Below are positions 9,040 to 64,000 of a stretch of DNA of 64,000 nucleotides, one piece after another. The DNA lies in the IMG/VR virus record IMGVR_UViG_3300037851_000671, positions 154,773 through 218,772 of that record, one strand, 5' to 3'. Position numbers and translations under genes: made by a program. The notes beneath the pieces are model-generated. The model did no database searches and was not told the DNA's origin. It was given only the letters and a program-made list of their open reading frames with translations. Origin of the DNA: a virus (lineage: Duplodnaviria > Caudoviricetes). Each line of letters opens with the position of its first letter. Positions within the stretch are counted from its first letter, which is position 1.

Positions 9040-9659
9040 GGAGGAGGTGGCTCGTATAGGAATACTTCTACTGTTGTAAAGAAATCTTGATGACCGTCAG
9101 CTTGTAATGCTCCGCGTTGGATGGCAAAGCAAATCCTATCAGCGTTGAAAACCTCTTCATCAACACCTGGCATAATTGGTTTAACGCTAGCGCCGGTCGC
9201 AGGATCAGCAGTTGGGTCCTTGGAATTTTGATACCAAAATACGTATTCGCTCATACCCCATCCAAAACAATTTGGAATAGAACATGAACAACTAGGCCAG
9301 TATACACAGTTTTGTTCTACAAGCCTGATACTTGGCGTCAAAAACCCAGGATCAACTGTGGTGGGTTCTCTACCCGAATGATCACCAGGAGCATCCTGAT
9401 CAAGGTTTCTTCCAGTAAAAACAGCTGTACAACGAATGGAACCGCTTGATGACAGTCCAGCTTGATTGTACCAAATTGTAGTAAAATCAATTATGAATGT
9501 GCCAGCTGATATCCTTGTGCTCTCGAACGGTTTCGAGAAATCAAGAATGGTGTTCAGGTGTATCCCAGAGGTAGGTCCGTTGCCAAAAAGAAAAGGCAAC
9601 GGAGGGTATTGAATCCTGTCCTCGTAGGACTTCTTTAACATTAGCTTGTGCTTGATCAT
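9036..9659 (-). CDS. hypothetical protein
   Basis: 207 aa ORF overlapping the GT2 start. Confidence 0.45.
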   Translation of the reverse strand: MIKHKLMLKKSYEDRIQYPPLPFLFGNGPTSGIHLNTILDFSKPFESTRISAGTFIIDFTTIWYNQAGLSSSGSIRCTAVFTGRNLDQDAPGDHSGREPTTVDPGFLTPSIRLVEQNCVYWPSCSCSIPNCFGWGMSEYVFWYQNSKDPTADPATGASVKPIMPGVDEEVFNADRICFAIQRGALQADGHQDFFTTVEVFLYEPPPP

Positions 9660-10919: not shown

Positions 10920-11054
10920 GAGTAACGAAAATTGCAGGACCACTGTTTTTTGTGCTACAATTACAACACATCCAGCCTTTCGACCGGAGCTGGGATTCGA
11001 ACCCAGACCTCTTAATTCTCAATTTAGGATGAATGATCCCACTGCGCGTTACTC
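10920..11054 (-). ncRNA. modular Y-RNA-like element E3 (circularly permuted tRNA cargo)
   Basis: GAGTAACG/CGTTACTC closing stem; T-arm CTGGG-TTCGAAT-CCCAG; acceptor TCCGGTC/GGCTGGA capped by GAAA; D-arm-like segment follows. Confidence 0.85.
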
Positions 11055-11212
11055 GGTGCTTCGTTCTATGTTTCCACAGAATGAAACGAGAGCGTAAAGT
11101 AAACCGAGAATATTGATAGATTCTCGATTGGGGTTTCTGCACGATGCCTGCTTTTTTGGAGGCAAACGCATATTCTCGGATTGTCTTTGAGACAGTTGAA
11201 AGGTGTTAGAGG

Positions 11213-11413: not shown

Positions 11414-12122
11414 TCTTTTCTTAGAGAGACTTGCAGAGGGCTTGGATTCAACATCAAAGCTTACTCATGCTTTATTGTCTGAGATCAGAGATTCTGAAGC
11501 GGATTTTGCCTCCATCAAAACCGAGCTGTCAATACTAAGAGAGAACGTTAAAGGACTGTCAGAGATTGTCAGGGAAGGTAATGGAGCCACATCTATTCTC
11601 ACACGTATTGCGCTTATTGAGGCGCGAATACAGAACATTGAGAAGTGGATGGAAACCCACATCGATCTTCATCAGGAGGAAAACGCTGACGTGAGCAAGG
11701 CTCAGGAACAGCTGAAAGACCTCGATAAGAAGATCGCCGCGTTAACTTCAGTTGTCAATGAACTAAAATCTCACGCCGATGATATTGAGAAGAAGAGGCG
11801 CGAGAGTATAGACCGCGAGCTAGAGCTTCAGCACGAGGACAAGAAGAGCAAGATAGGGGTAGCTGCCGAAAGACAGCAGACCATTATCAAAGTCCTTGGT
11901 GCCCTGTTGTTGGCCGTGCTTGGCGCTGCTGGTGGCTATTTAGCGAATTCTTGTCATGGGACCGCCGGAGCGGCGCAGCCAAGGAGCGTTATTGTTGCCC
12001 CCTCGGCTGCCCCTATCCTAGCTCAACCGGCCGAGCCGATCAAGGAGAATCTGACTCCTCAACCGCCGTCACAGCCGCTTCTTCAGCCTTCGGTTTCTGC
12101 TGTTGCAAAACGAACTCGTTGA
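11388..12122 (+). CDS. coiled-coil protein with C-terminal transmembrane segment
   Basis: heptad-rich body; hydrophobic 'IIKVLGALLLAVLGAAGGYLA'. Confidence 0.55.
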   Translation: MATSKTTNDLFLERLAEGLDSTSKLTHALLSEIRDSEADFASIKTELSILRENVKGLSEIVREGNGATSILTRIALIEARIQNIEKWMETHIDLHQEENADVSKAQEQLKDLDKKIAALTSVVNELKSHADDIEKKRRESIDRELELQHEDKKSKIGVAAERQQTIIKVLGALLLAVLGAAGGYLANSCHGTAGAAQPRSVIVAPSAAPILAQPAEPIKENLTPQPPSQPLLQPSVSAVAKRTR

Positions 12123-13686
12123 GATCAAAATCCCTGATCGCCTTGACAATGTTGATACCAACATACTCAAGGTTCTTGAACAGTGCCGGTGTCATAGTCT
12201 GATACACGGTGACACTACGATCACCGAAATCAGCGCTGTGCCACTGGTAGTTGCTGGCATTGATAACCCAAAGCTCTGCCTCTGGGTTGACCTTCTTGCG
12301 ATACTCAGCCCAAGCCCTTGTCAAAGGAGTGCCAGCGTTCTGCTGCTCATCAGTGATCAAAACCATCAAATCAAGCTTACGCTTGCTGTTGGTTGCGTTC
12401 TCGATTGCCAGAGAAACCGTAGTTCCACCGGCAACCCTGAGAGCCAACAGATTCTTAACCTGATTCTTGCGATTCAGGCCAGTGATCCTTGGGCACATAC
12501 CGCTAGCGTAGCCGTAACGACCTCCGTGACCCTCCTCATACAAGGCGTTATCAAAAGTTGTGAACCAAAGGTTTGTAGCCTTTAGGAATGGCACTGCCAA
12601 CAGACCAGCAGTCTGAAGAGGCTCCCCGTTCATAGAACCAGAGATATCAACAGACACACCAACTCTCTTACCTTCAATGGTAGGCATTGGTACGTCCAAT
12701 GTTGCAACCATTGCATCGATAAGAATGTCCTTGACCTTTTCGTGCTTGGCGAAAATGTATGGCTTTGCAAAGTCAAGCGGAAGAGAGCGGCCATTCTGAA
12801 CCTCTCCCATCTTTAGCTTGAGCGCGGTCAGTCCATCCGTGGTGTCGAAGACATTGCGCTCTTCGAGAGAACGGATGTTGAGCAACAGAGCTGTCAAACC
12901 CATCTGAGTCATCGAGGCCATTGCAAGAGGACCCTTGAGTCCCGCAAAACCCTTAACAACATCCCATGGGATTTCATTTTCCAGCATCATATCAGCGATC
13001 TTCTTTGGATCACTGAGCTTCTTCATCATCTCAACAGCAACCTGCTTGGAACCGGTTGCCTCGGCCTTACGACCGTCCAAGACATACAGAATGACGTTTG
13101 CACGACCGTCTGTATAACGTGGGTGAACCAAACGAACGAGCTGATTCAAAGCAGTTGGATACTTGAGCGTGAAGTTTTCAAGCTTCTTATATCCCCACTT
13201 CTCCATTGCCGCGCGCACCCACTTCTGAGCACGCGAACCAAAACCACGACCCAACTGCTTGCTCTTGCACAGCTCCACGAACTGGATCAATTGACCAGGG
13301 TGGAATGTGCTAAGCAATGCAATAGCTGCCTGCTTATTTACAGGAGAATCCAAGAACTGCTCGTTTGCAGATCCGGCAATGGCAGCAAGAGCTACCTTAA
13401 CCATACCTTTCATATGGCTATTGCGGGCAAAGCAAGCCGCCTTGAGCAGGTACTCAGGGTCCAGCTTCGCGCGGTCAATGAGCAACGGCAGAGCTTCTTT
13501 TGCCGCGTCATCAACAGAGCGATAAAACTGGTTCTTAAGAATACCAGTCAAAAGAACACGAGCAACCGAATCTTCAGGAAGCTCATTCTTGGACAGATAT
13601 TCCGTCTTGGTCACAACCTTCTCAGGCTGACCCAACAGAGCCTTAACAAAAGAAGTGGACTTAACCTTGTTTGTTGTCTTATTCAT
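12040..13686 (-). CDS. rsr: Ro60/TROVE-domain RNA-binding protein with vWA domain
   Basis: 548 aa; TROVE-like helical N-part ('DPEYLLKAACFARN', 'LVRLVHP', 'IPWDVV', 'LTALLLNIRSL'), vWA MIDAS 'VDISGSM', 'GGT', 'LITDEQ'. Confidence 0.88.
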   Translation of the reverse strand: MNKTTNKVKSTSFVKALLGQPEKVVTKTEYLSKNELPEDSVARVLLTGILKNQFYRSVDDAAKEALPLLIDRAKLDPEYLLKAACFARNSHMKGMVKVALAAIAGSANEQFLDSPVNKQAAIALLSTFHPGQLIQFVELCKSKQLGRGFGSRAQKWVRAAMEKWGYKKLENFTLKYPTALNQLVRLVHPRYTDGRANVILYVLDGRKAEATGSKQVAVEMMKKLSDPKKIADMMLENEIPWDVVKGFAGLKGPLAMASMTQMGLTALLLNIRSLEERNVFDTTDGLTALKLKMGEVQNGRSLPLDFAKPYIFAKHEKVKDILIDAMVATLDVPMPTIEGKRVGVSVDISGSMNGEPLQTAGLLAVPFLKATNLWFTTFDNALYEEGHGGRYGYASGMCPRITGLNRKNQVKNLLALRVAGGTTVSLAIENATNSKRKLDLMVLITDEQQNAGTPLTRAWAEYRKKVNPEAELWVINASNYQWHSADFGDRSVTVYQTMTPALFKNLEYVGINIVKAIRDFDLNEFVLQQQKPKAEEAAVTAVEESDSP

Positions 13687-14236: not shown

Positions 14237-14899
14237 TCAAAAATCGTCCATCTGATCTGCGAATTTCGTAATTAGGTTTGACAGGGTATGAGGCTCACGT
14301 TTAATGAGTGCTACATATTCTGTTTTAGAGTTCACAAGCCAGTTCACAAGATCTACTGTGTTTATCGCATCAATCTCAGCAGAGTGCGCCCCAATCTTTG
14401 GAGTTATTCCAATACCAATCAGGAAGTTATTGAGACCAAACTTTACCTTTGGCTCTCCTTGAGCTGCTGCAATTTTTTCAGCAAGTCCATGTTTCTTGAC
14501 AGCTAATTGTGCGTACTGTTTTGTACACAACCAAAGGTCTGCCGGAAATTCTTTGTCACATGACTTCCAGGCCGCGTGACAGAACTTCCTATCAAAAGGT
14601 GCGTTGTGAGCGTAGATACATCTATGCGCTCTGGTTTTGCCATCCTCTTCAAAAAAGGCATCGATTATGTCAATGGCCTCTTTCAATGGGATGCCAACAT
14701 CAAGGTCATCGACAATTTTACCCTGTATTTCGAGGGCTTGTGGACTTGCCCGCTCAGGATTATCAACCTTTATGTCTACTGATAGCTGCTTTCCTGTAGA
14801 AAGTCTTATGACAGAGAATTGGTTAATTTGATGCCATTCACATTTTAGACCAGTTGTTTCAGTGTCTATAATGTAGTATTCTATATCATTCGCGGCCAT
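14237..14899 (-). CDS. DEDDh 3'-5' exonuclease (DnaQ-like)
   Basis: 'IIDTETTGL', 'AHNAPFD', 'HSAEIDA'. Confidence 0.85.
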   Translation of the reverse strand: MAANDIEYYIIDTETTGLKCEWHQINQFSVIRLSTGKQLSVDIKVDNPERASPQALEIQGKIVDDLDVGIPLKEAIDIIDAFFEEDGKTRAHRCIYAHNAPFDRKFCHAAWKSCDKEFPADLWLCTKQYAQLAVKKHGLAEKIAAAQGEPKVKFGLNNFLIGIGITPKIGAHSAEIDAINTVDLVNWLVNSKTEYVALIKREPHTLSNLITKFADQMDDF

Positions 14900-28527: not shown

Positions 28528-28613
28528 CGGAAGAAGAAGGAGTCAAACCTTCAAGACCTTTTGGGTTCGCCGGAGTTCGAAGCCGGTGCCATCATCTATT
28601 GGCTTGTTCTTCC
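28528..28613 (-). tRNA. tRNA-Ser(CGA)
   Basis: loop TTCGAAC, long variable arm, 31-39 mismatch. Confidence 0.8.
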
Positions 28614-40550: not shown

Positions 40551-40886
40551 TTACCTGGCAGATTCTTCAGCAGCTTTAATGAACTCTTCGTCAGTCGGTT
40601 CATGTAGGCCTGTCTTACCGGCTTGATCATATTTCTCTTTCAACTCATCGATATGATAGCAAATTGGAATTTCGTTTTCTCGCTCTATAATTACACGAGG
40701 GAGAGGGCCGCAGTTTTCATTGCAGCCAACATACTCGTATACCCTGATGAAAGAGATGTTGTTCTTTTTCAACAGTTCACATGCTTGTTGTTCAAGCGGT
40801 GTCATTGGTAACCCCGCCCGGATTCCAACCGGGACGCCATTTCTGGCGGCTGATTTTAAATCAGATGCGTCTGGCAATTCCGCCAC
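40551..40886 (-). CDS. hypothetical protein
   Basis: 111 aa ORF. Confidence 0.45.
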   Translation of the reverse strand: MAELPDASDLKSAARNGVPVGIRAGLPMTPLEQQACELLKKNNISFIRVYEYVGCNENCGPLPRVIIERENEIPICYHIDELKEKYDQAGKTGLHEPTDEEFIKAAEESAR

Positions 40887-40899
40887 GGGGTCATACTGT

Positions 40900-45197: not shown

Positions 45198-45201
45198 GTT
45201 G

Positions 45202-45283
45202 CACCCCCGGCAGGATTCGAACCTACGGTGAGTTTCCTCGGAAGATTAGAAATCTTCTGCCTTATCCACTAGGCTACGGGGGC
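45202..45283 (-). tRNA. tRNA-Arg(TCT) with an extra variable-arm hairpin
   Basis: loop TTTCTAA; variable region contains GAG-GAAA-CTC. Confidence 0.8.
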
Positions 45284-58107: not shown

Positions 58108-58139
58108 ACCAACAGATATACCGAGAGAATCGTAGAGTT

Positions 58140-58289
58140 AGATAACGAAAAGGGCTCAGACGAAGTTTTTTCCAGCGTCCAGCCGCCGCATGTTGCCCGG
58201 TTTTACCCAGGTGGTGCGGCGCAGGGAAATCGAATCCCTGTCGTTTGAATTATCGGTTCAAGATGAATCGTCCAAAAAGCGCGTTATCT
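58140..58289 (-). ncRNA. modular Y-RNA-like element E8 (permuted acceptor with encoded ACCA)
   Basis: AGATAACG/CGTTATCT; GGACG-ATTCATC..CGTCT; T-arm AGGGA-TTCGATT-TCCCT; GCGCCGC-ACCA-insert-GCGGCG. Confidence 0.82.
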
Positions 58290-58327
58290 GGCGATGCTGT
58301 AAACACCCAAGCTTACAGCGTCATTTG

Positions 58328-60364: not shown

Positions 60365-60446
60365 TGCAGATAGTGGGTCTCGAACCCACATGTCCTTAAG
60401 GACTCTACGCTCTGAACGTAGTGCGTTTGCTTTTCGCCATATCTGC
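60365..60446 (-). tRNA. tRNA-Leu(CAG)
   Basis: loop TTCAGAG, long variable arm. Confidence 0.88.
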
Positions 60447-60636
60447 AAAAACCGGGGCTGCTCTATCCATTGAGCTAATCAACTTGTATTCAAACATTTC
60501 TTCGAACGGCACCTTCGCAAAGTGATATCCCTTTGCACTCCAGGCTTTAGCTTTCGCGTAACGTTGAGAGGAAATTGCCTTTGCAGGACTGTCATACATG
60601 TTGATATTGGATTCGAACCAATAACCAACCCCTTAG
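60447..60636 (-). ncRNA. circularly permuted tRNA-like RNA P1 with ~125-nt insert at the acceptor end
   Basis: GGGGT-TGGTT-ATTGG-TTCGAAT-CCAAT-ATCAAC-[insert]-GTTGAT-TA-GCTC..GAGC-A-GCCCC. Confidence 0.75.
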
Positions 60637-60680
60637 GGTGACCAGTTGGTACCGCCCCAACTACGACAGAGCCACAATCT
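60637..60680 (-). tRNA. 3' half of split tRNA-His(GTG)
   Basis: AGATTGTGGC-TCTG, T-arm GTTGG-GGCGGTA-CCAAC, acceptor strand TGGTCAC, C73. Confidence 0.75.
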
Positions 60681-61235: not shown

Positions 61236-61317
61236 TGCTCATGAAGGGATTCGAACCCCCAAGCCCGAAGGCGGCAGTATTTGAAGCTGCTGTGTATACC
61301 AGTTCCACCACATGAGC
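61236..61317 (-). tRNA. tRNA-Leu(CAA)
   Basis: Leu-type D-arm and variable arm; loop TTCAAAT; C31-A39 mismatch. Confidence 0.8.
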
Positions 61318-61459: not shown

Positions 61460-62401
61460 ATGAACCTAGAGAAGTATATCGTGTTACACGGCAGCCCTAT
61501 CAAGCTGCCCAAGCCTCATGCAGATTTTGTTGACTTTTACTACAACAACATGATGCATGATAAGAAGTTCGGAGTTATCCATATGCGAAAGGCCAGACAG
61601 GTTGGTTTTACCAGTTTGAGTCATGGGCTTTCGTTAGCTTTGGCCATGGAAGAGGTTGTTAGGGTTTATCACCTTCATCCTACTATGGCTATGGCAGCAC
61701 AGTCAGCTCAAAAAATAAACGATATGATTCTTGATGCCCCAAGAGGAATGACCAAGAAGCGCAATGGCCTTCTAAAATCTGTCATTGAAGAAAAGTTGAA
61801 ATGGGGTCCTCAATGCGATACCAAAACCAGAAAAGAGTTTGAGAATGGAAGCTCAATCCTAACAGAGTCAACTGGGAACAATGCCTGCCGTTTGAGGGGA
61901 GGAAGCTGTGACATTTCTTTTTTCCATGAGTCACAGCGCATGGAGCCAGAAGCTATGAGGAACGCAAGTCATCTTTCATCCCATTCACAATTCGGTGTGC
62001 TTGGTCTTGGTGTTCAGACTTATATGTTCACACCACAAGAGGAAGATGATTATTCCGATCATATGTGGAAAGATTCAGACCAGAGGAGGTTCCACTACAG
62101 GTGCGAGAACTGCTCCTGTATGTTCCCAATCATGCAAAGCAATTTCCGTGAGATTTGGTTGTATGGATTTACCATCCGTTGTCCAGAATGTCACAGAGAG
62201 CAGGACAAGAGAAACGCCATGAAACGCGGAGAGTGGATAGCTACAGCAACCGAGTCACATGTTGCTGGATTCCATATGGACCAGTCTACCATGGAGTTTT
62301 TTAGCCGTGAGTCAATTGATGCGTGCTATAATGACAGAACCATGACGGAAAGGAATATCGCTAATGAAGTATGGGGAGAGTCTTTTCCGAAAGAACAGTA
62401 A
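61460..62401 (+). CDS. terminase large subunit (GpA-like) ATPase-domain protein, nuclease domain absent
   Basis: 'MRKARQVGFTS', 'RLRGGSCDISFFHE', Zn ribbon 'CENC..CPEC', 'VAGFHM'; start at MNLEKY. Confidence 0.65.
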   Translation: MNLEKYIVLHGSPIKLPKPHADFVDFYYNNMMHDKKFGVIHMRKARQVGFTSLSHGLSLALAMEEVVRVYHLHPTMAMAAQSAQKINDMILDAPRGMTKKRNGLLKSVIEEKLKWGPQCDTKTRKEFENGSSILTESTGNNACRLRGGSCDISFFHESQRMEPEAMRNASHLSSHSQFGVLGLGVQTYMFTPQEEDDYSDHMWKDSDQRRFHYRCENCSCMFPIMQSNFREIWLYGFTIRCPECHREQDKRNAMKRGEWIATATESHVAGFHMDQSTMEFFSRESIDACYNDRTMTERNIANEVWGESFPKEQ

Positions 62402-62402
62402 T

Positions 62403-62650
62403 AAAACGGGGACTGCTCTACCAATTGAGCTAATCCAACTTTGTTCGATAACTAACGCCTCTTCAAACTCGCACCGTGTGGAAATCGCGTTTTTCCGTGA
62501 CAGGCTTTAGCAACAAGCCATGCAAGACATCCCCTCGCGAGGGAGCTAACACGGACTAACAGTTGCGTAAGAGTTGATAGGAGACAGTCTTATGAAGCAC
62601 TGTTACTTATCGAGTCGAATGCCGGACTCGAACCGGCAACCTTCCCCTCA
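62403..62650 (-). ncRNA. circularly permuted tRNA-like RNA P2 with ~175-nt structured insert at the acceptor end
   Basis: GGGGA-AGGTT-GCCGG-TTCGAGT-CCGGC-ATTCGAC-[insert]-GTTGGAT-TA-GCTC-AATTGGTA-GAGC-AG-TCCCC. Confidence 0.8.
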
Positions 62651-62651
62651 G

Positions 62652-62724
62652 TCCTGATAGCAGAAGTCGAATCTGCAACATCCAGCTTATGATGCTAGCG
62701 CTCTACCAATTGAGCTATATCAGG
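62652..62724 (-). tRNA. tRNA with CAT anticodon (elongator Met or Ile2)
   Basis: acceptor CCTGATA/TATCAGG, loop ATCATAA. Confidence 0.82.
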
Positions 62725-63085
62725 GAATATCATTTTTAGCTTCTTTCAACGCCTCTCTTCTATTCTTGACCTCTTGTCTTTCGTGTTGTACCCTTTTCCA
62801 CTTGAGCGCTCCATGGCCTCTACGATGTTTCAAGTCTCGTCTTACCAAGAATGGAACGTTACCATGTTTTTCAATGTGCATGTTCCAATAGCGTGTTAGA
62901 CGTTTCTTGATACGTGGTATCTTGTTTTCTCTTATGTGTGGCATAGAGAGAAAATCAGACATCAATTCTTCAAGAGTGTTGTATGTATCCTTCAAATAGT
63001 ACATAGTGGCCTCTAAAAAGTAAGTAGAAGTGATGCCATTCCAATTTGGCGGAGATGTCTCTTCGTAAAGAGCAATCGGCATCAT
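62720..63085 (-). CDS. basic hypothetical protein
   Basis: 121 aa ORF in the tRNA array. Confidence 0.45.
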   Translation of the reverse strand: MMPIALYEETSPPNWNGITSTYFLEATMYYLKDTYNTLEELMSDFLSMPHIRENKIPRIKKRLTRYWNMHIEKHGNVPFLVRRDLKHRRGHGALKWKRVQHERQEVKNRREALKEAKNDIP

Positions 63086-63089
63086 ACAT

Positions 63090-63166
63090 TGGTGACCCCA
63101 GTCGGATTCGAACCGACAATAAGCTGCCTGAAAAACAGCCGTCCTGAACCGTTAGACGATGGGGCC
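63090..63166 (-). tRNA. tRNA-Glu(TTC)
   Basis: loop TTTTCAG, encoded CCA. Confidence 0.9.
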
Positions 63167-63175
63167 ATTGAAAAG

Positions 63176-63271
63176 AGGATAACGAAAATTGGTTGACCTT
63201 TTGCCTTACGGCACATTACGTTTCGGTTTTTATTACTGATGTAGATGAAAGATCAAACCTGCGCGTTATCT
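63176..63271 (-). ncRNA. modular Y-RNA-like element E9 (short non-tRNA cargo)
   Basis: AAGATAACG/CGTTATCCT; GGTTTGATC-TTTCATC..GGTCAACC. Confidence 0.8.
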
Positions 63272-63350
63272 TGGAAGCGGGTCTTGGATTTGAACCAAGG
63301 AAACTAGGCTTATGAGACCCAGGAGTTAGGCCAGACTACTCTAACCCGCG
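63272..63350 (-). tRNA. tRNA-fMet(CAT)-like
   Basis: C1-U72 mismatch, loop CTCATAA, encoded CCA. Confidence 0.8.
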
Positions 63351-63359
63351 ATAGTGAAT

Positions 63360-63517
63360 AAGCAACGAAAAGATTTGAGACCCTGCCTTTCGGCTCTGTT
63401 GTGTATACCAATTCCACCATACCGGCGTTTCCACGTTTCCACCGATAGCGGGACTCGAACCCGCAAACGTATTAGGTGACAGTTTTACAAGATGAAAGAT
63501 CTCGGATCGCGTTGCTT
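63360..63517 (-). ncRNA. modular Y-RNA-like element E10 (permuted tRNA-Leu-like cargo)
   Basis: AAGCAACG/CGTTGCTT; GAGATC-TTTCATC; long variable region, T-arm GCGGG-TTCGAGT-CCCGC, Leu-type D-arm GGTGGAATTGGTATACAC. Confidence 0.88.
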
Positions 63518-63519
63518 TG

Positions 63520-63607
63520 TGCCGCCGACAGGATTCGAACCTGCATGAACGTTTTGTGTTCCTCACGCTCTCAACGTGATATGTATACCAAATTCCATCA
63601 CAGCGGC
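63520..63607 (-). tRNA. tRNA-Leu(GAG)
   Basis: loop TTGAGAG, long variable arm. Confidence 0.9.
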
Positions 63608-63609
63608 AA

Positions 63610-63791
63610 AGGATAACGAAAGATTGTCAGACGGGTTTTTCAACACCAGTCTGCCCATTGTTTTCAGAAGAATTGAGACTTGTTTTTACCGGCACAACCA
63701 GCATCTCAATTTGGCGGGCAGCTAAGGAATCGAACCTTAATGTCTATACGTTGGAAATATTAGATGAACCATCTAACTATGCGCGTTATCT
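63610..63791 (-). ncRNA. modular Y-RNA-like element E11 (permuted acceptor with encoded GCCA)
   Basis: AGATAACG/CGTTATCC; AGATGG-TTCATC..CCGTCT; T-arm TAAGG-TTCGATT-CCTTA; GCTGCCC-GCCA-insert-GGGCAG. Confidence 0.82.
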
Positions 63792-63869
63792 TGGTTGCGG
63801 AGAATTGGATTTGAACCAATGACCTTCGGGTTATGGGCCCGACGAGCTACCTGACTGCTCTACCCCGCA
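63792..63869 (-). tRNA. tRNA-fMet(CAT) with C33
   Basis: anticodon stem TCGGG/CCCGA, loop CCCATAA, encoded CCA. Confidence 0.85.
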
Positions 63870-63875
63870 ATAATT

Positions 63876-63994
63876 AGCAACGAAAGGAGCGAGACCCTAC
63901 ATGCCCACATGGGCGATTCCCCAGTGAAAAGAACCCGAAGGTTCGGTGGGGAATTAAGTTTCGAGCTTAGATGAAAGATCCCTAACGCGTTGCT
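63876..63994 (-). ncRNA. modular Y-RNA-like element E12 (multi-hairpin non-tRNA cargo)
   Basis: AGCAACG/CGTTGCT; GGGATC-TTTCATC..GGTCTC; internal TTCCCCA/TGGGGAA and GAACC-TTCG-GGTTC stems. Confidence 0.82.
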
Positions 63995-64000
63995 GGTCCC

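Follow-up and report, generated by a model that had tools for sequence, protein, structure and literature searches.

A putative Y-RNA-like gene of a huge freshwater phage with a circularly permuted tRNA-Leu(UAA) body

Results

A handle RNA gene between two tRNA genes

The window, as we call the whole 64,000-nt stretch of DNA analysed here, is the last 64 kb of a 218,772-bp IMG/VR viral contig whose completeness is estimated at about half and whose source is a huge freshwater phage. It holds 31 tRNA genes, on the minus strand in every case and separated within the array by spacers of 2 to 18 nt. Within the tRNA arrays lie 12 further elements (E1-E12), all on the minus strand, that have a two-helix stem in common, which we term the handle; further handle copies were sought in the remaining 155 kb of the contig and none were found. 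The element studied here, E10, lies at 63358-63519 on the minus strand (63360-63517 in an earlier reading made from the letters alone, hereafter the sequence-only reading). Directly upstream is a tRNA-Leu(GAG) gene (63519..63607, minus strand), whose 3' end touches E10, and directly downstream a tRNA-Met gene (63272..63350, minus strand).

Read in the direction of the tRNA genes, with all positions on the minus strand, E10 begins with the handle. The 5' strand of the outer helix P1, AAGCAACG (63510..63517), pairs with the 3' strand CGUUGCUU (63360..63367) with pair probabilities of 0.86-1.0, and the 5' strand of the inner helix P2, GAGAUC (63498..63503), pairs with GGUCUC (63377..63382) and includes a conserved U-G wobble. 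Between the two helices lies an internal loop with CGAUCC on its 5' side (63504..63509) and AAAUCUUUU on its 3' side (63368..63376), and P2 is followed by the single-stranded motif UUUCAUC (63491..63497) and then UUG.

The body that follows consists of the parts of a tRNA in permuted order. It starts with an anticodon remnant, UAAAA (63483..63487; U34 A35 A36 A37 A38 of tRNA-Leu(UAA)), which aligns with the CUUAAAA loop of canonical tRNA-Leu(UAA) genes with nt 32-33 missing, and continues with the 3' strand of the anticodon stem, CUGU (63479..63482; nt 40-43), where canonical relatives have UCUGU and U39 is deleted. An unpaired variable region of 14 nt (63465..63478) leads to the T arm, GCGGG-UUCGAGU-CCCGC (63448..63464), and to an acceptor stem of 8 bp, UAUCGGUG/CGCCGGUA, with a closing loop of 12 nt, GAAACGUGGAAA (63420..63447; pair probabilities 0.64-0.88). 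The discriminator position (A73) is a G, which pairs with C and lengthens the acceptor stem. Then come a Leu-type (class II) D arm, TGGTGGAATTGGTATACACA, with nt 8-9 and 26 (63400..63419), and the 5' strand of the anticodon stem, ACAGA (63395..63399; nt 27-31). An extra GNRA hairpin, GCC-GAAA-GGC (63385..63394; pair probability 0.98), stands between the tRNA part and P2; it resembles the variable-arm hairpins of 2 of the 113 canonical relatives described below, which we note as a weak lead.

Some of these parts had been seen in the sequence-only reading, which named a D arm like those of the neighbouring Leu tRNAs, the anticodon-stem remnants ACAG (63396-63399) and CTGT (63479-63482) with TAAAA ahead of the latter, and a long variable region. 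The D arm and the remnants are there as described, TAAAA being the anticodon UAA plus A37 and A38. The variable region has class II length and no longer forms a hairpin: the same region in canonical relatives consists of hairpins of 11-19 nt, one of which starts CACC-GAAA-GGU (compare CACC in E10), and ARAGORN draws it in E10 as an open loop, so that it is best described as a decayed class II variable arm. CUGU can pair with ACAG, and folding gives this pairing a probability of only 0.03. RNAfold alone misses both the D stem and the anticodon stem (probability 0.03) and favours another pairing, of the variable region with a D-stem strand, at -47.9 versus -41.6 kcal/mol. The class II D arm and the conserved tertiary nucleotides are present in E10, but it departs from a functional tRNA-Leu in that it has neither a 5-bp anticodon stem with a 7-nt loop nor A73, its variable arm is unpaired and its acceptor ends are joined.

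The handle family

The 12 window elements share the frame NNAACG-CG(C)-N-GAUCnUUCAUC, variable insert, GGUC-N-UUUU-CGUUNN. RNAfold gives all 12 of them P1 and P2 with an asymmetric internal loop between the helices, and nUUCAUC after P2 is invariant across their alignment. We extended the comparison to 46 elements from five phage genomes, namely E10's phage and the related huge-phage contigs G001-G004. P1 measures 6-9 bp, with the inner end AACG/CGUU in the 46 elements, and comes in 31 different outer sequences, a variety that is partly circular because the scanner demanded P1 pairing. P2 was not demanded by the scanner and yet pairs in 46 of 49 candidates, with 30 different outer sequences and with compensatory variants of its inner four pairs (GAUC/GGUC, GACA/UGUC, GACG/CGUC, GAGA/UCUC). 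The internal loop starts with CG on its 5' side in 44 of 46 elements (family consensus CGC...) and ends in UUUU on its 3' side in 31 of 46. P1 and P2 covary, and the handle is a genuine conserved structure. On the plus strand the conserved U-G wobble of P2 would turn into a C-A mismatch, so the RNA is read from the strand that encodes the tRNAs.

What the handle carries varies. tRNA-like inserts recur on it in many phages, and it also bears non-tRNA inserts (E5, E12) or none (E1, E7, E9). By handle comparison E10 is nearest to E4, E6 and E12 on the 5' side and to E12 and E4 on the 3' side, at 66-79%; given its shortness and strong conservation, the handle does not allow a phylogeny to be resolved. 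A first scan of viral contigs with the handle pattern gave mostly single chance matches in coding DNA, only the contigs with multiple matches being genuine, and a scan of metagenome contigs with a loose pattern gave, among the matches listed, chance matches.

Leu(UAA) ancestry of the E10 body

The D arm of E10 is identical in 19 of 20 positions to that of the resident tRNA-Leu(CAA) (61291-61310). When the D-arm string was sought in the window at up to 3 mismatches, this 1-mismatch site was the only other match, with a chance expectation of 0.01, and in edit distance the arm is 1 away from three Leu tRNAs, with no non-Leu tRNA within distance 2. We then compared the elements with 142 tRNAs of the phage and its relatives, each split at the anticodon, requiring the match to the 3' half to lie upstream of the match to the 5' half. 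The top five partners of E10 were all tRNA-Leu, scoring 39-31, where shuffled elements reached at most 20.

The highest score belongs to a tRNA-Leu(UAA) from locus L121 (12763-12846) of the related phage G003. The de-permuted insert is 84.6% identical to this tRNA over 52 columns; for five putative orthologous tRNA-Leu pairs of E10's phage and G003 the identity is 66-90%. The two sequences agree in 6 of 7 positions of the acceptor 5' strand (GCCGGUA in E10, GCCGUUA in G003), are identical in the D region except for one indel, and differ in the T arm mainly by one compensatory pair. The anticodon region reads UUUAAAA + ACUAU in G003 and (G)UAAAA-CUGU in E10. Given the de-permuted E10 sequence, ARAGORN draws a cloverleaf in which the anticodon loop has 6 nt and the variable loop is open. 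With the resident Leu(CAA) and Leu(GAG) the E10 insert shares about 75% identity, with E4 57% and with E6 43%. The idea of the sequence-only reading that the donor was a resident tRNA gene gains no support from these values, the resident Leu genes standing at about 75% versus 85% for the G003 tRNA-Leu(UAA). A canonical copy of E10's tRNA-Leu(UAA) type is absent from the contig; another tRNA-Leu(UAA) lies at 40806-40892.

Counterparts of the unpermuted gene were found in public metagenome contigs. A contig of metagenome run X5 matches the E10 copy of the 5' half up to ACAGA (63395), continues with 23 other letters, and then matches E10 again from 63466, shortly ahead of the T arm. On the tRNA strand these 23 letters read CUUAAAA-UCUGU-CGGCGUGAGCC, and they complete a perfect 5-bp anticodon arm, ACAGA-CUUAAAA-UCUGU, together with a variable-arm hairpin that is absent from E10. 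By its sequence, this contig carries a canonical gene whose halves match those of E10 in swapped order, the direct signature of a circular permutation. A similar canonical gene with a swapped-order match comes from metagenome run X3.

The arm ACAGA-CUUAAAA-UCUGU together with the same D arm proved common: an exact 22-nt pattern matched more than 120 viral contigs, from which 113 full tRNA-Leu(UAA) genes were parsed. Beyond the columns of this pattern, the 113 relatives show conservation of at least 95% in 21 columns, and E10 has the family letter in 20 of these; the sole exception is the discriminator, A in the family and G in E10. Within the pattern itself E10 is without nt 32, 33 and 39 only. 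The ACAGA strand is identical to the stems of the X5 gene and of more than 113 viral contigs, and T arms identical to that of E10 occur in canonical tRNA-Leu(UAA) genes of viral contigs. The alignment puts the break between nt 31 and 34, in the 5' part of the anticodon loop, with the handle in place of nt 32-33, so that the break at the anticodon proposed in the sequence-only reading can be endorsed; decay is limited to the anticodon loop, the variable arm and the discriminator. We take these comparisons as demonstrating, at the level of sequence, that a phage-type tRNA-Leu(UAA) gene, copied in circularly permuted order and partly decayed, makes up the body of E10. A search of viral contigs for the Leu D arm together with the handle 3' motif matched G001 alone, so that no E10 orthologue was found in these contigs beyond near-identical strains.

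Other inserts and the question of one origin

The other tRNA-like inserts of the family differ from E10 and from each other. E4 and E6 have class-I GCUC/GAGC D arms, as the sequence-only reading had stated, and, having the YrlA-like order of parts, score 42.5 and 37.8 bits against Rfam YrlA, below the gathering score of 69. By edit distance of the D arms, G001, L136 and L140 each have one insert of the same Leu type as E10, and G002 has one that belongs there more loosely; E4, E6 and five further inserts are of a generic class-I type; a Glu/Gln-like type is represented by orthologous copies in G001 and G002; and a few inserts fit no group. The Leu-type inserts of G001, L136 and L140 carry no anticodon remnants, the anticodon and anticodon-stem remnants being found in E10 only. 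One G002 insert is alike in about 25 of 26 nt to tRNA-Thr(UGU) over acceptor stem and D arm.

The sequence-only reading had suggested placing the de-permuted inserts in a tree with phage tRNAs. Such a tree, built from 17 de-permuted inserts with full T, acceptor and D arms and 140 tRNAs and limited to the acceptor, D and T regions (51 columns), puts E10 beside the G003 tRNA-Leu(UAA), within a set of 19 Leu tRNAs, three inserts and one tRNA-Tyr supported at 95/99. One clade for all de-permuted inserts, the outcome that the sequence-only reading had named as speaking against it, was rejected by the AU test (p-AU 0.019, at a cost of 127 lnL units), and one clade for the four Leu-type inserts was not rejected (p 0.15). 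The tree is noisy, another Leu-type insert being joined to tRNA-Gln with high support, and because it is weak away from E10 we use it for the placement of E10 only.

The nearest relatives of E4 and E6 are inserts of other phages, at 81% and 75%, so that both are inherited lineages rather than fresh captures. Sequence comparison and tree show that the insert of E10 was acquired separately from the class-I inserts of E4 and E6, and the handle inserts as a group have differing tRNA ancestries, E10 being of Leu and the G002 insert of Thr type. The different ancestries proposed in the sequence-only reading are thereby upheld, but fresh capture does not extend to E4 and E6, which fit descent or duplication.

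A Ro60 homologue encoded in the window

A 548-aa ORF (12040..13686, minus strand) is the predicted protein partner of the handle RNAs. It matches Pfam vWA_Ro60 (PF25045) with 30.1 bits, at a cut-off of 27.7, gives a weak PDB sequence match to human Ro60, and has 94 homologues, some of which are named Ro by JGI and one of which carries TROVE; a six-frame search for TROVE (PF05731) in the contig and five relatives gave no match. For the AlphaFold model of the protein (pLDDT 80.7), the 13 best Foldseek matches in the PDB are all Ro60/Rsr, over the full length (best 2nvo, E 9.5e-14, TM 0.69/0.76). Judged by its modelled fold, the protein is a Ro60 homologue, and it also matches the Ro60 structures of Thermus phage phiLo (PDB 9KOP, 9L5Y).

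Ro60 homologues are encoded in G002, G003 and G004 as well (60-72% identity), each followed by handle elements, and in the window E1-E3 lie 1-1.4 kb downstream of the Ro60 gene, with E10 about 50 kb away. G001, a complete 169-kb genome with 11 handle elements, gave no match to TROVE, to vWA_Ro60 or to the homologue, and the Ro60-binding motif GNCGAAN0-1G (CGAA) is absent from the handle in all 12 window elements. Gene linkage and analogy with Y RNAs suggest that the handle is likely the binding site for the phage Ro60 homologue.

Presence and turnover of E10

Parts of E10 recur at about 98-99% identity in contigs of three other metagenome runs from two other studies, and its occurrence in independent runs means that E10 is not an assembly artefact. 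A 163-nt X5 contig joins tRNA-Met (to 63349) to tRNA-Leu(GAG) (from 63519) through a single A, without E10; this empty site, at a depth of 3.6, comes from a relative of another strain with tRNAs 91-95% alike. In G003, the closest syntenic relative compared, E11, E12 and their flanking tRNAs are collinear with the window, and the slot of E10 is filled by an unrelated E2-type handle element. We also observed a local duplication of a segment made of a handle 3' end and tRNA-Met. The E10 3' handle with tRNA-Met is 88% identical, mostly in the tRNA, to an E12-like 3' handle with tRNA-Met in G003.

A slot that is empty or differently filled in relatives indicates that its content turns over on the time-scale of strain and species divergence, and E10 would therefore be either a young acquisition or a recently lost one. 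An ongoing capture of tRNAs, as the sequence-only reading had it, is no more than suggested by a single young and polymorphic case, E10. None of the public sequencing runs listed with the E10 locus is an RNA run.

Discussion

Y RNAs combine a Ro60-binding stem with an effector-binding body, and the bodies of YrlA RNAs mimic tRNA and are recognised by tRNA enzymes (PMC4201824). YrlA (RF02553) is known from Salmonella, Mycobacterium smegmatis and mycobacteriophages and is bound by Rsr/Ro60 (PMC4201824; 10.1101/312249). E10 resembles it in having a stem formed by its 5' and 3' ends that emerges at the position of the anticodon arm, in the module order of variable region, T arm, closed acceptor stem and D arm, and in the presence of a Ro60 homologue in the same genome. 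Unlike YrlA, it has a handle of the form AACGCG...GAUCnUUCAUC / GGUC...UUUUCGUU without a GNCGAA motif. Further differences are a D arm of the class II Leu type, a variable region of 14 nt, the remnants of anticodon and anticodon stem, and membership in a set of at least 12 handle RNAs whose bodies differ. An Rfam search of 63000-64000 at E values up to 10 returned neither YrlA nor another relevant family for E10. Its place in a tRNA array is some 50 kb away from the Ro60 gene, whereas the YrlA genes of Chen et al. lie within 4 kb of a Ro60 orthologue (PMC4201824). The missing CGAA motif, the lack of a YrlA match, this distance and the presence of handle elements in G001, where the searches found no Ro60, all speak against a plain assignment to the known Y RNAs. 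A second point of comparison is Thermus phage phiLo, in which a phage Ro60 likewise goes together with phage Y-like RNAs, Yrl1 and Yrl2, and binds both these RNAs and the host PNPase (PMC12135203; PDB 9KOP, 9L5Y). Unlike E10, the phiLo RNAs are stem-bulge-stem structures with a CGAA motif that adjoin the Ro60 gene (PMC12135203), and they are not known to have a tRNA-derived body.

Compared with the canonical phage tRNA-Leu(UAA) family, E10 keeps the D arm, both anticodon-stem strands, the anticodon, the T arm and the acceptor pattern, and is 80-85% identical when de-permuted. It departs from the family in its swapped halves, in the joining of the acceptor ends by a loop, in the unpaired variable arm and in the change of the discriminator from A to G. 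As the window encodes a Ro60 homologue, a Y-RNA-like tRNA mimic is the most likely interpretation of E10, rather than a decoding tRNA. We regard it as probable that E10 is a Y-RNA-like small RNA gene made of a putative Ro60-binding handle and a separately acquired, permuted tRNA-Leu(UAA) body.

Placed between two tRNA genes, E10 is probably part of the array transcript, from which tRNA-processing enzymes would free it. Its 5' and 3' ends would fold into the handle, with P1, the asymmetric internal loop, P2 and the single-stranded UUCAUC, which would bind the phage Ro60, and the body would present a tRNA-Leu-like elbow and acceptor arm. With these parts intact and the anticodon loop opened, the RNA would mimic tRNA-Leu and yet be unable to decode. 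In the manner of YrlA, it would link Ro60 to a factor that recognises tRNA, or serve as a gate or decoy for one.

A tRNA origin of bacterial Y RNA modules was proposed by Chen et al. in 2014, who gave no intermediate (PMC4201824). For E10 the likeliest route, though a speculative one, would be the insertion of a tandem tRNA-Leu junction (the 3' part of copy 1, the spacer and the 5' part of copy 2, reaching from one anticodon loop to the next) into the apical loop of the handle, whose apical part it may have replaced. This route is plausible because tandem tRNAs imitate the YrlA order, as was noted by Chen et al. (PMC4201824), and because the acceptor loop (12-14 nt) has the size of a spacer. 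As a side observation, the GCC-GAAA-GGC hairpin that follows ACAGA weakly hints that copy 2 once extended past the anticodon arm.

Permuted tRNA genes with the 3' half upstream of the 5' half and a break in or near the anticodon loop exist in the red alga Cyanidioschyzon merolae, where they mature to working tRNAs via a bulge-helix-bulge motif and the splicing endonuclease. E10 likewise encodes a tRNA 3' half upstream of the 5' half, and it retains UAA as anticodon, a complete acceptor stem and four pairs of the anticodon stem in a contig that has no canonical copy of its type. One could therefore ask whether the handle brings the ends together, so that cutting and re-ligation at the anticodon loop and a cut in the acceptor loop would yield a working tRNA-Leu(UAA). 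We consider this highly improbable, because the same handle, the helix that flanks the tRNA part, bears non-tRNA inserts or none in other RNAs, because variable arm and anticodon loop are defective, and because the discriminator is G versus an A conserved in the family. Unlike the C. merolae genes, E10 shows by inspection no bulge-helix-bulge at the junction, its termini forming P1, internal loop and P2 instead, and it is without nt 32-33, nt 39 and variable-arm pairing; re-joining would give a 6-nt loop and four stem pairs with an A-A mismatch. A profile search for RtcB (PF01139) over the 218 kb found no match, and another tRNA-Leu(UAA) is available at 40806-40892. The losses in the tRNA part (unpaired variable arm, missing U39 and nt 32-33, changed discriminator) might rather speak for a by-product of rearrangement in a dynamic tRNA array, that is, a handle gene disrupted by a piece of tRNA-Leu tandem, functionless and decaying. 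One relative has an empty slot and G003 a different element there, the duplication of handle 3' end and tRNA-Met attests to array turnover, and minimum-free-energy folding disfavours the tRNA-like fold. Against this reading, which we think unlikely, the conserved nucleotides of the D arm, the T arm and the tertiary contacts are intact (20 of 21 columns beyond the search pattern), the acceptor stem is retained with 8 pairs, and the differences from the G003 tRNA in the T stem and anticodon stem are compensatory; decay is found only where a Y-like mimic has no need, and tRNA-like inserts recur on the handle in many phages.

It is also quite unlikely, in our assessment, that all tRNA-like inserts go back to a single YrlA-like ancestor, E10 having gained its Leu character through later gene conversion or convergent mimicry. 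Such a history would be in line with the handles of at least three further phage contigs (G001, L136, L140), which bear Leu-type D arms but no anticodon remnants, with the single clade of four Leu-type inserts that was not rejected, and with the shortness and functional constraint of D arms. The similarity of E10 to tRNA-Leu(UAA), however, spans both halves and includes parts with no role in mimicry (6 of 7 acceptor positions, the anticodon, an identical anticodon-stem strand); conversion would require two tracts in swapped order, and the clade of all inserts was rejected.

The reading of E10 as a Y-RNA-like gene with a separately acquired body could be extended to the family, with handle RNAs as a platform that repeatedly recruits tRNA pieces. 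Huge phages would then keep generating isotype-specific mimics (Leu, Thr, Glu-like and generic class I) that aim Ro60 at isotype-specific tRNA enzymes or host anti-phage tRNA nucleases, or act as decoys for them, and E10 would be the youngest product seen; we offer this extension tentatively, as a possibility that we would not ourselves expect to hold.

We believe that E10 represents an unusually clear case of an intermediate between a tRNA and the tRNA-like module of a Y RNA. Its donor family can be named, the phage tRNA-Leu(UAA), the break can be located with single-nucleotide precision, between nt 31 and 34, and the parts that were kept (elbow and acceptor arm) can be told from those that decayed (variable arm, anticodon loop and discriminator), in an element that is present in some close relatives and absent from at least one. 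Together with the Thr-like and Glu-like inserts, E10 shows that the tRNA mimics among Y-like RNAs descend from more than one tRNA and include class II forms. The handle inserts may thus serve as a test set for what the body of a Y RNA is selected for, and for which proteins a Ro60 particle targets during infection by tRNA-rich huge phages.

Possible protein partners of the handle RNAs

Handle elements, the small RNAs within tRNA arrays that share a stem of P1, an internal loop and P2, are also found in a genome with no detectable Ro60 gene. The related huge-phage contig G001 (IMGVR_UViG_3300035208_002255; loci L001, L058 and L117), a 169-kb genome classed as complete, with inverted terminal repeats, carries 11 of them in its tRNA array, and a search of this genome for the Pfam domains TROVE and vWA_Ro60 and for the Ro60 homologue of the window gave no match. 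The handle may therefore rely on a host Ro60 or on another protein. In the window itself, the Ro60 homologue has a 3'-5' exonuclease gene of the RNase T / DEDD type two genes upstream, on its own strand (14237-14899, minus strand; 220 aa; PF00929, E 4.6e-09). 3'-5' exoribonucleases are known working partners of bacterial Rsr.

tRNA genes and permuted tRNA-like RNAs

More than 120 viral contigs of IMG/VR, of many different sizes (L264-L383), carry a canonical tRNA-Leu(UAA) whose anticodon arm is exactly ACAGA-CUUAAAA-UCUGU and which has a GGUAUACAC D loop. Among phage (or attachment-site) tRNA-Leu types it is very widespread. Leu-type tRNA-like inserts, with D arms one to three edits from those of Leu tRNAs, are also borne by handles of another sequence (...AGAAAUUCAUC... 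/ ...GGUCUAUUG...) at L136 (about 10930-11090, plus strand), where a 6-bp hairpin stands in the place of the variable arm, and at L140 (about 9380-9510, plus strand).

Two permuted tRNA-like RNAs of the window lack a handle (60440-60640 and 62400-62655, both minus strand). Both combine a T arm with a long structured element inserted at the acceptor position and with a D arm of class I, TAGCTCAAT(T)GG(A/T)AGAGC, and in both a run of T comes after a short GGGG/CCCC closing stem; their closest tRNAs are a generic class-I mix. At 45201-45283 (minus strand) lies a tRNA-Arg(UCU) of 83 nt with about 13 nt in its variable region, which is unusual in a class I isotype; 3 nt downstream of it is a second tRNA-Arg(UCU), of normal length. 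At 28528-28613 (minus strand), immediately upstream of a tRNA-Ser(GCU), Rfam reports a weak tRNA (31.3 bits) but ARAGORN calls none.

Within the acceptor loop of E10, a handle with a circularly permuted tRNA-Leu(UAA) body, the 8-nt string TGGAAACG is repeated exactly and in tandem (63428-63443, minus strand), a duplication that looks like replication slippage. Large hairpin inserts occupy this loop in the handle elements E11 (63609-63793) and E8 (58138-58291), both on the minus strand and neither with a clear D arm. In both, CCA-like letters come after the acceptor 3' strand of the tRNA-like part (E11, GCTGCCC-G-CCA; E8, CGCCGCA-CCA), and cutting there would give both RNAs a tRNA-like 3' end.
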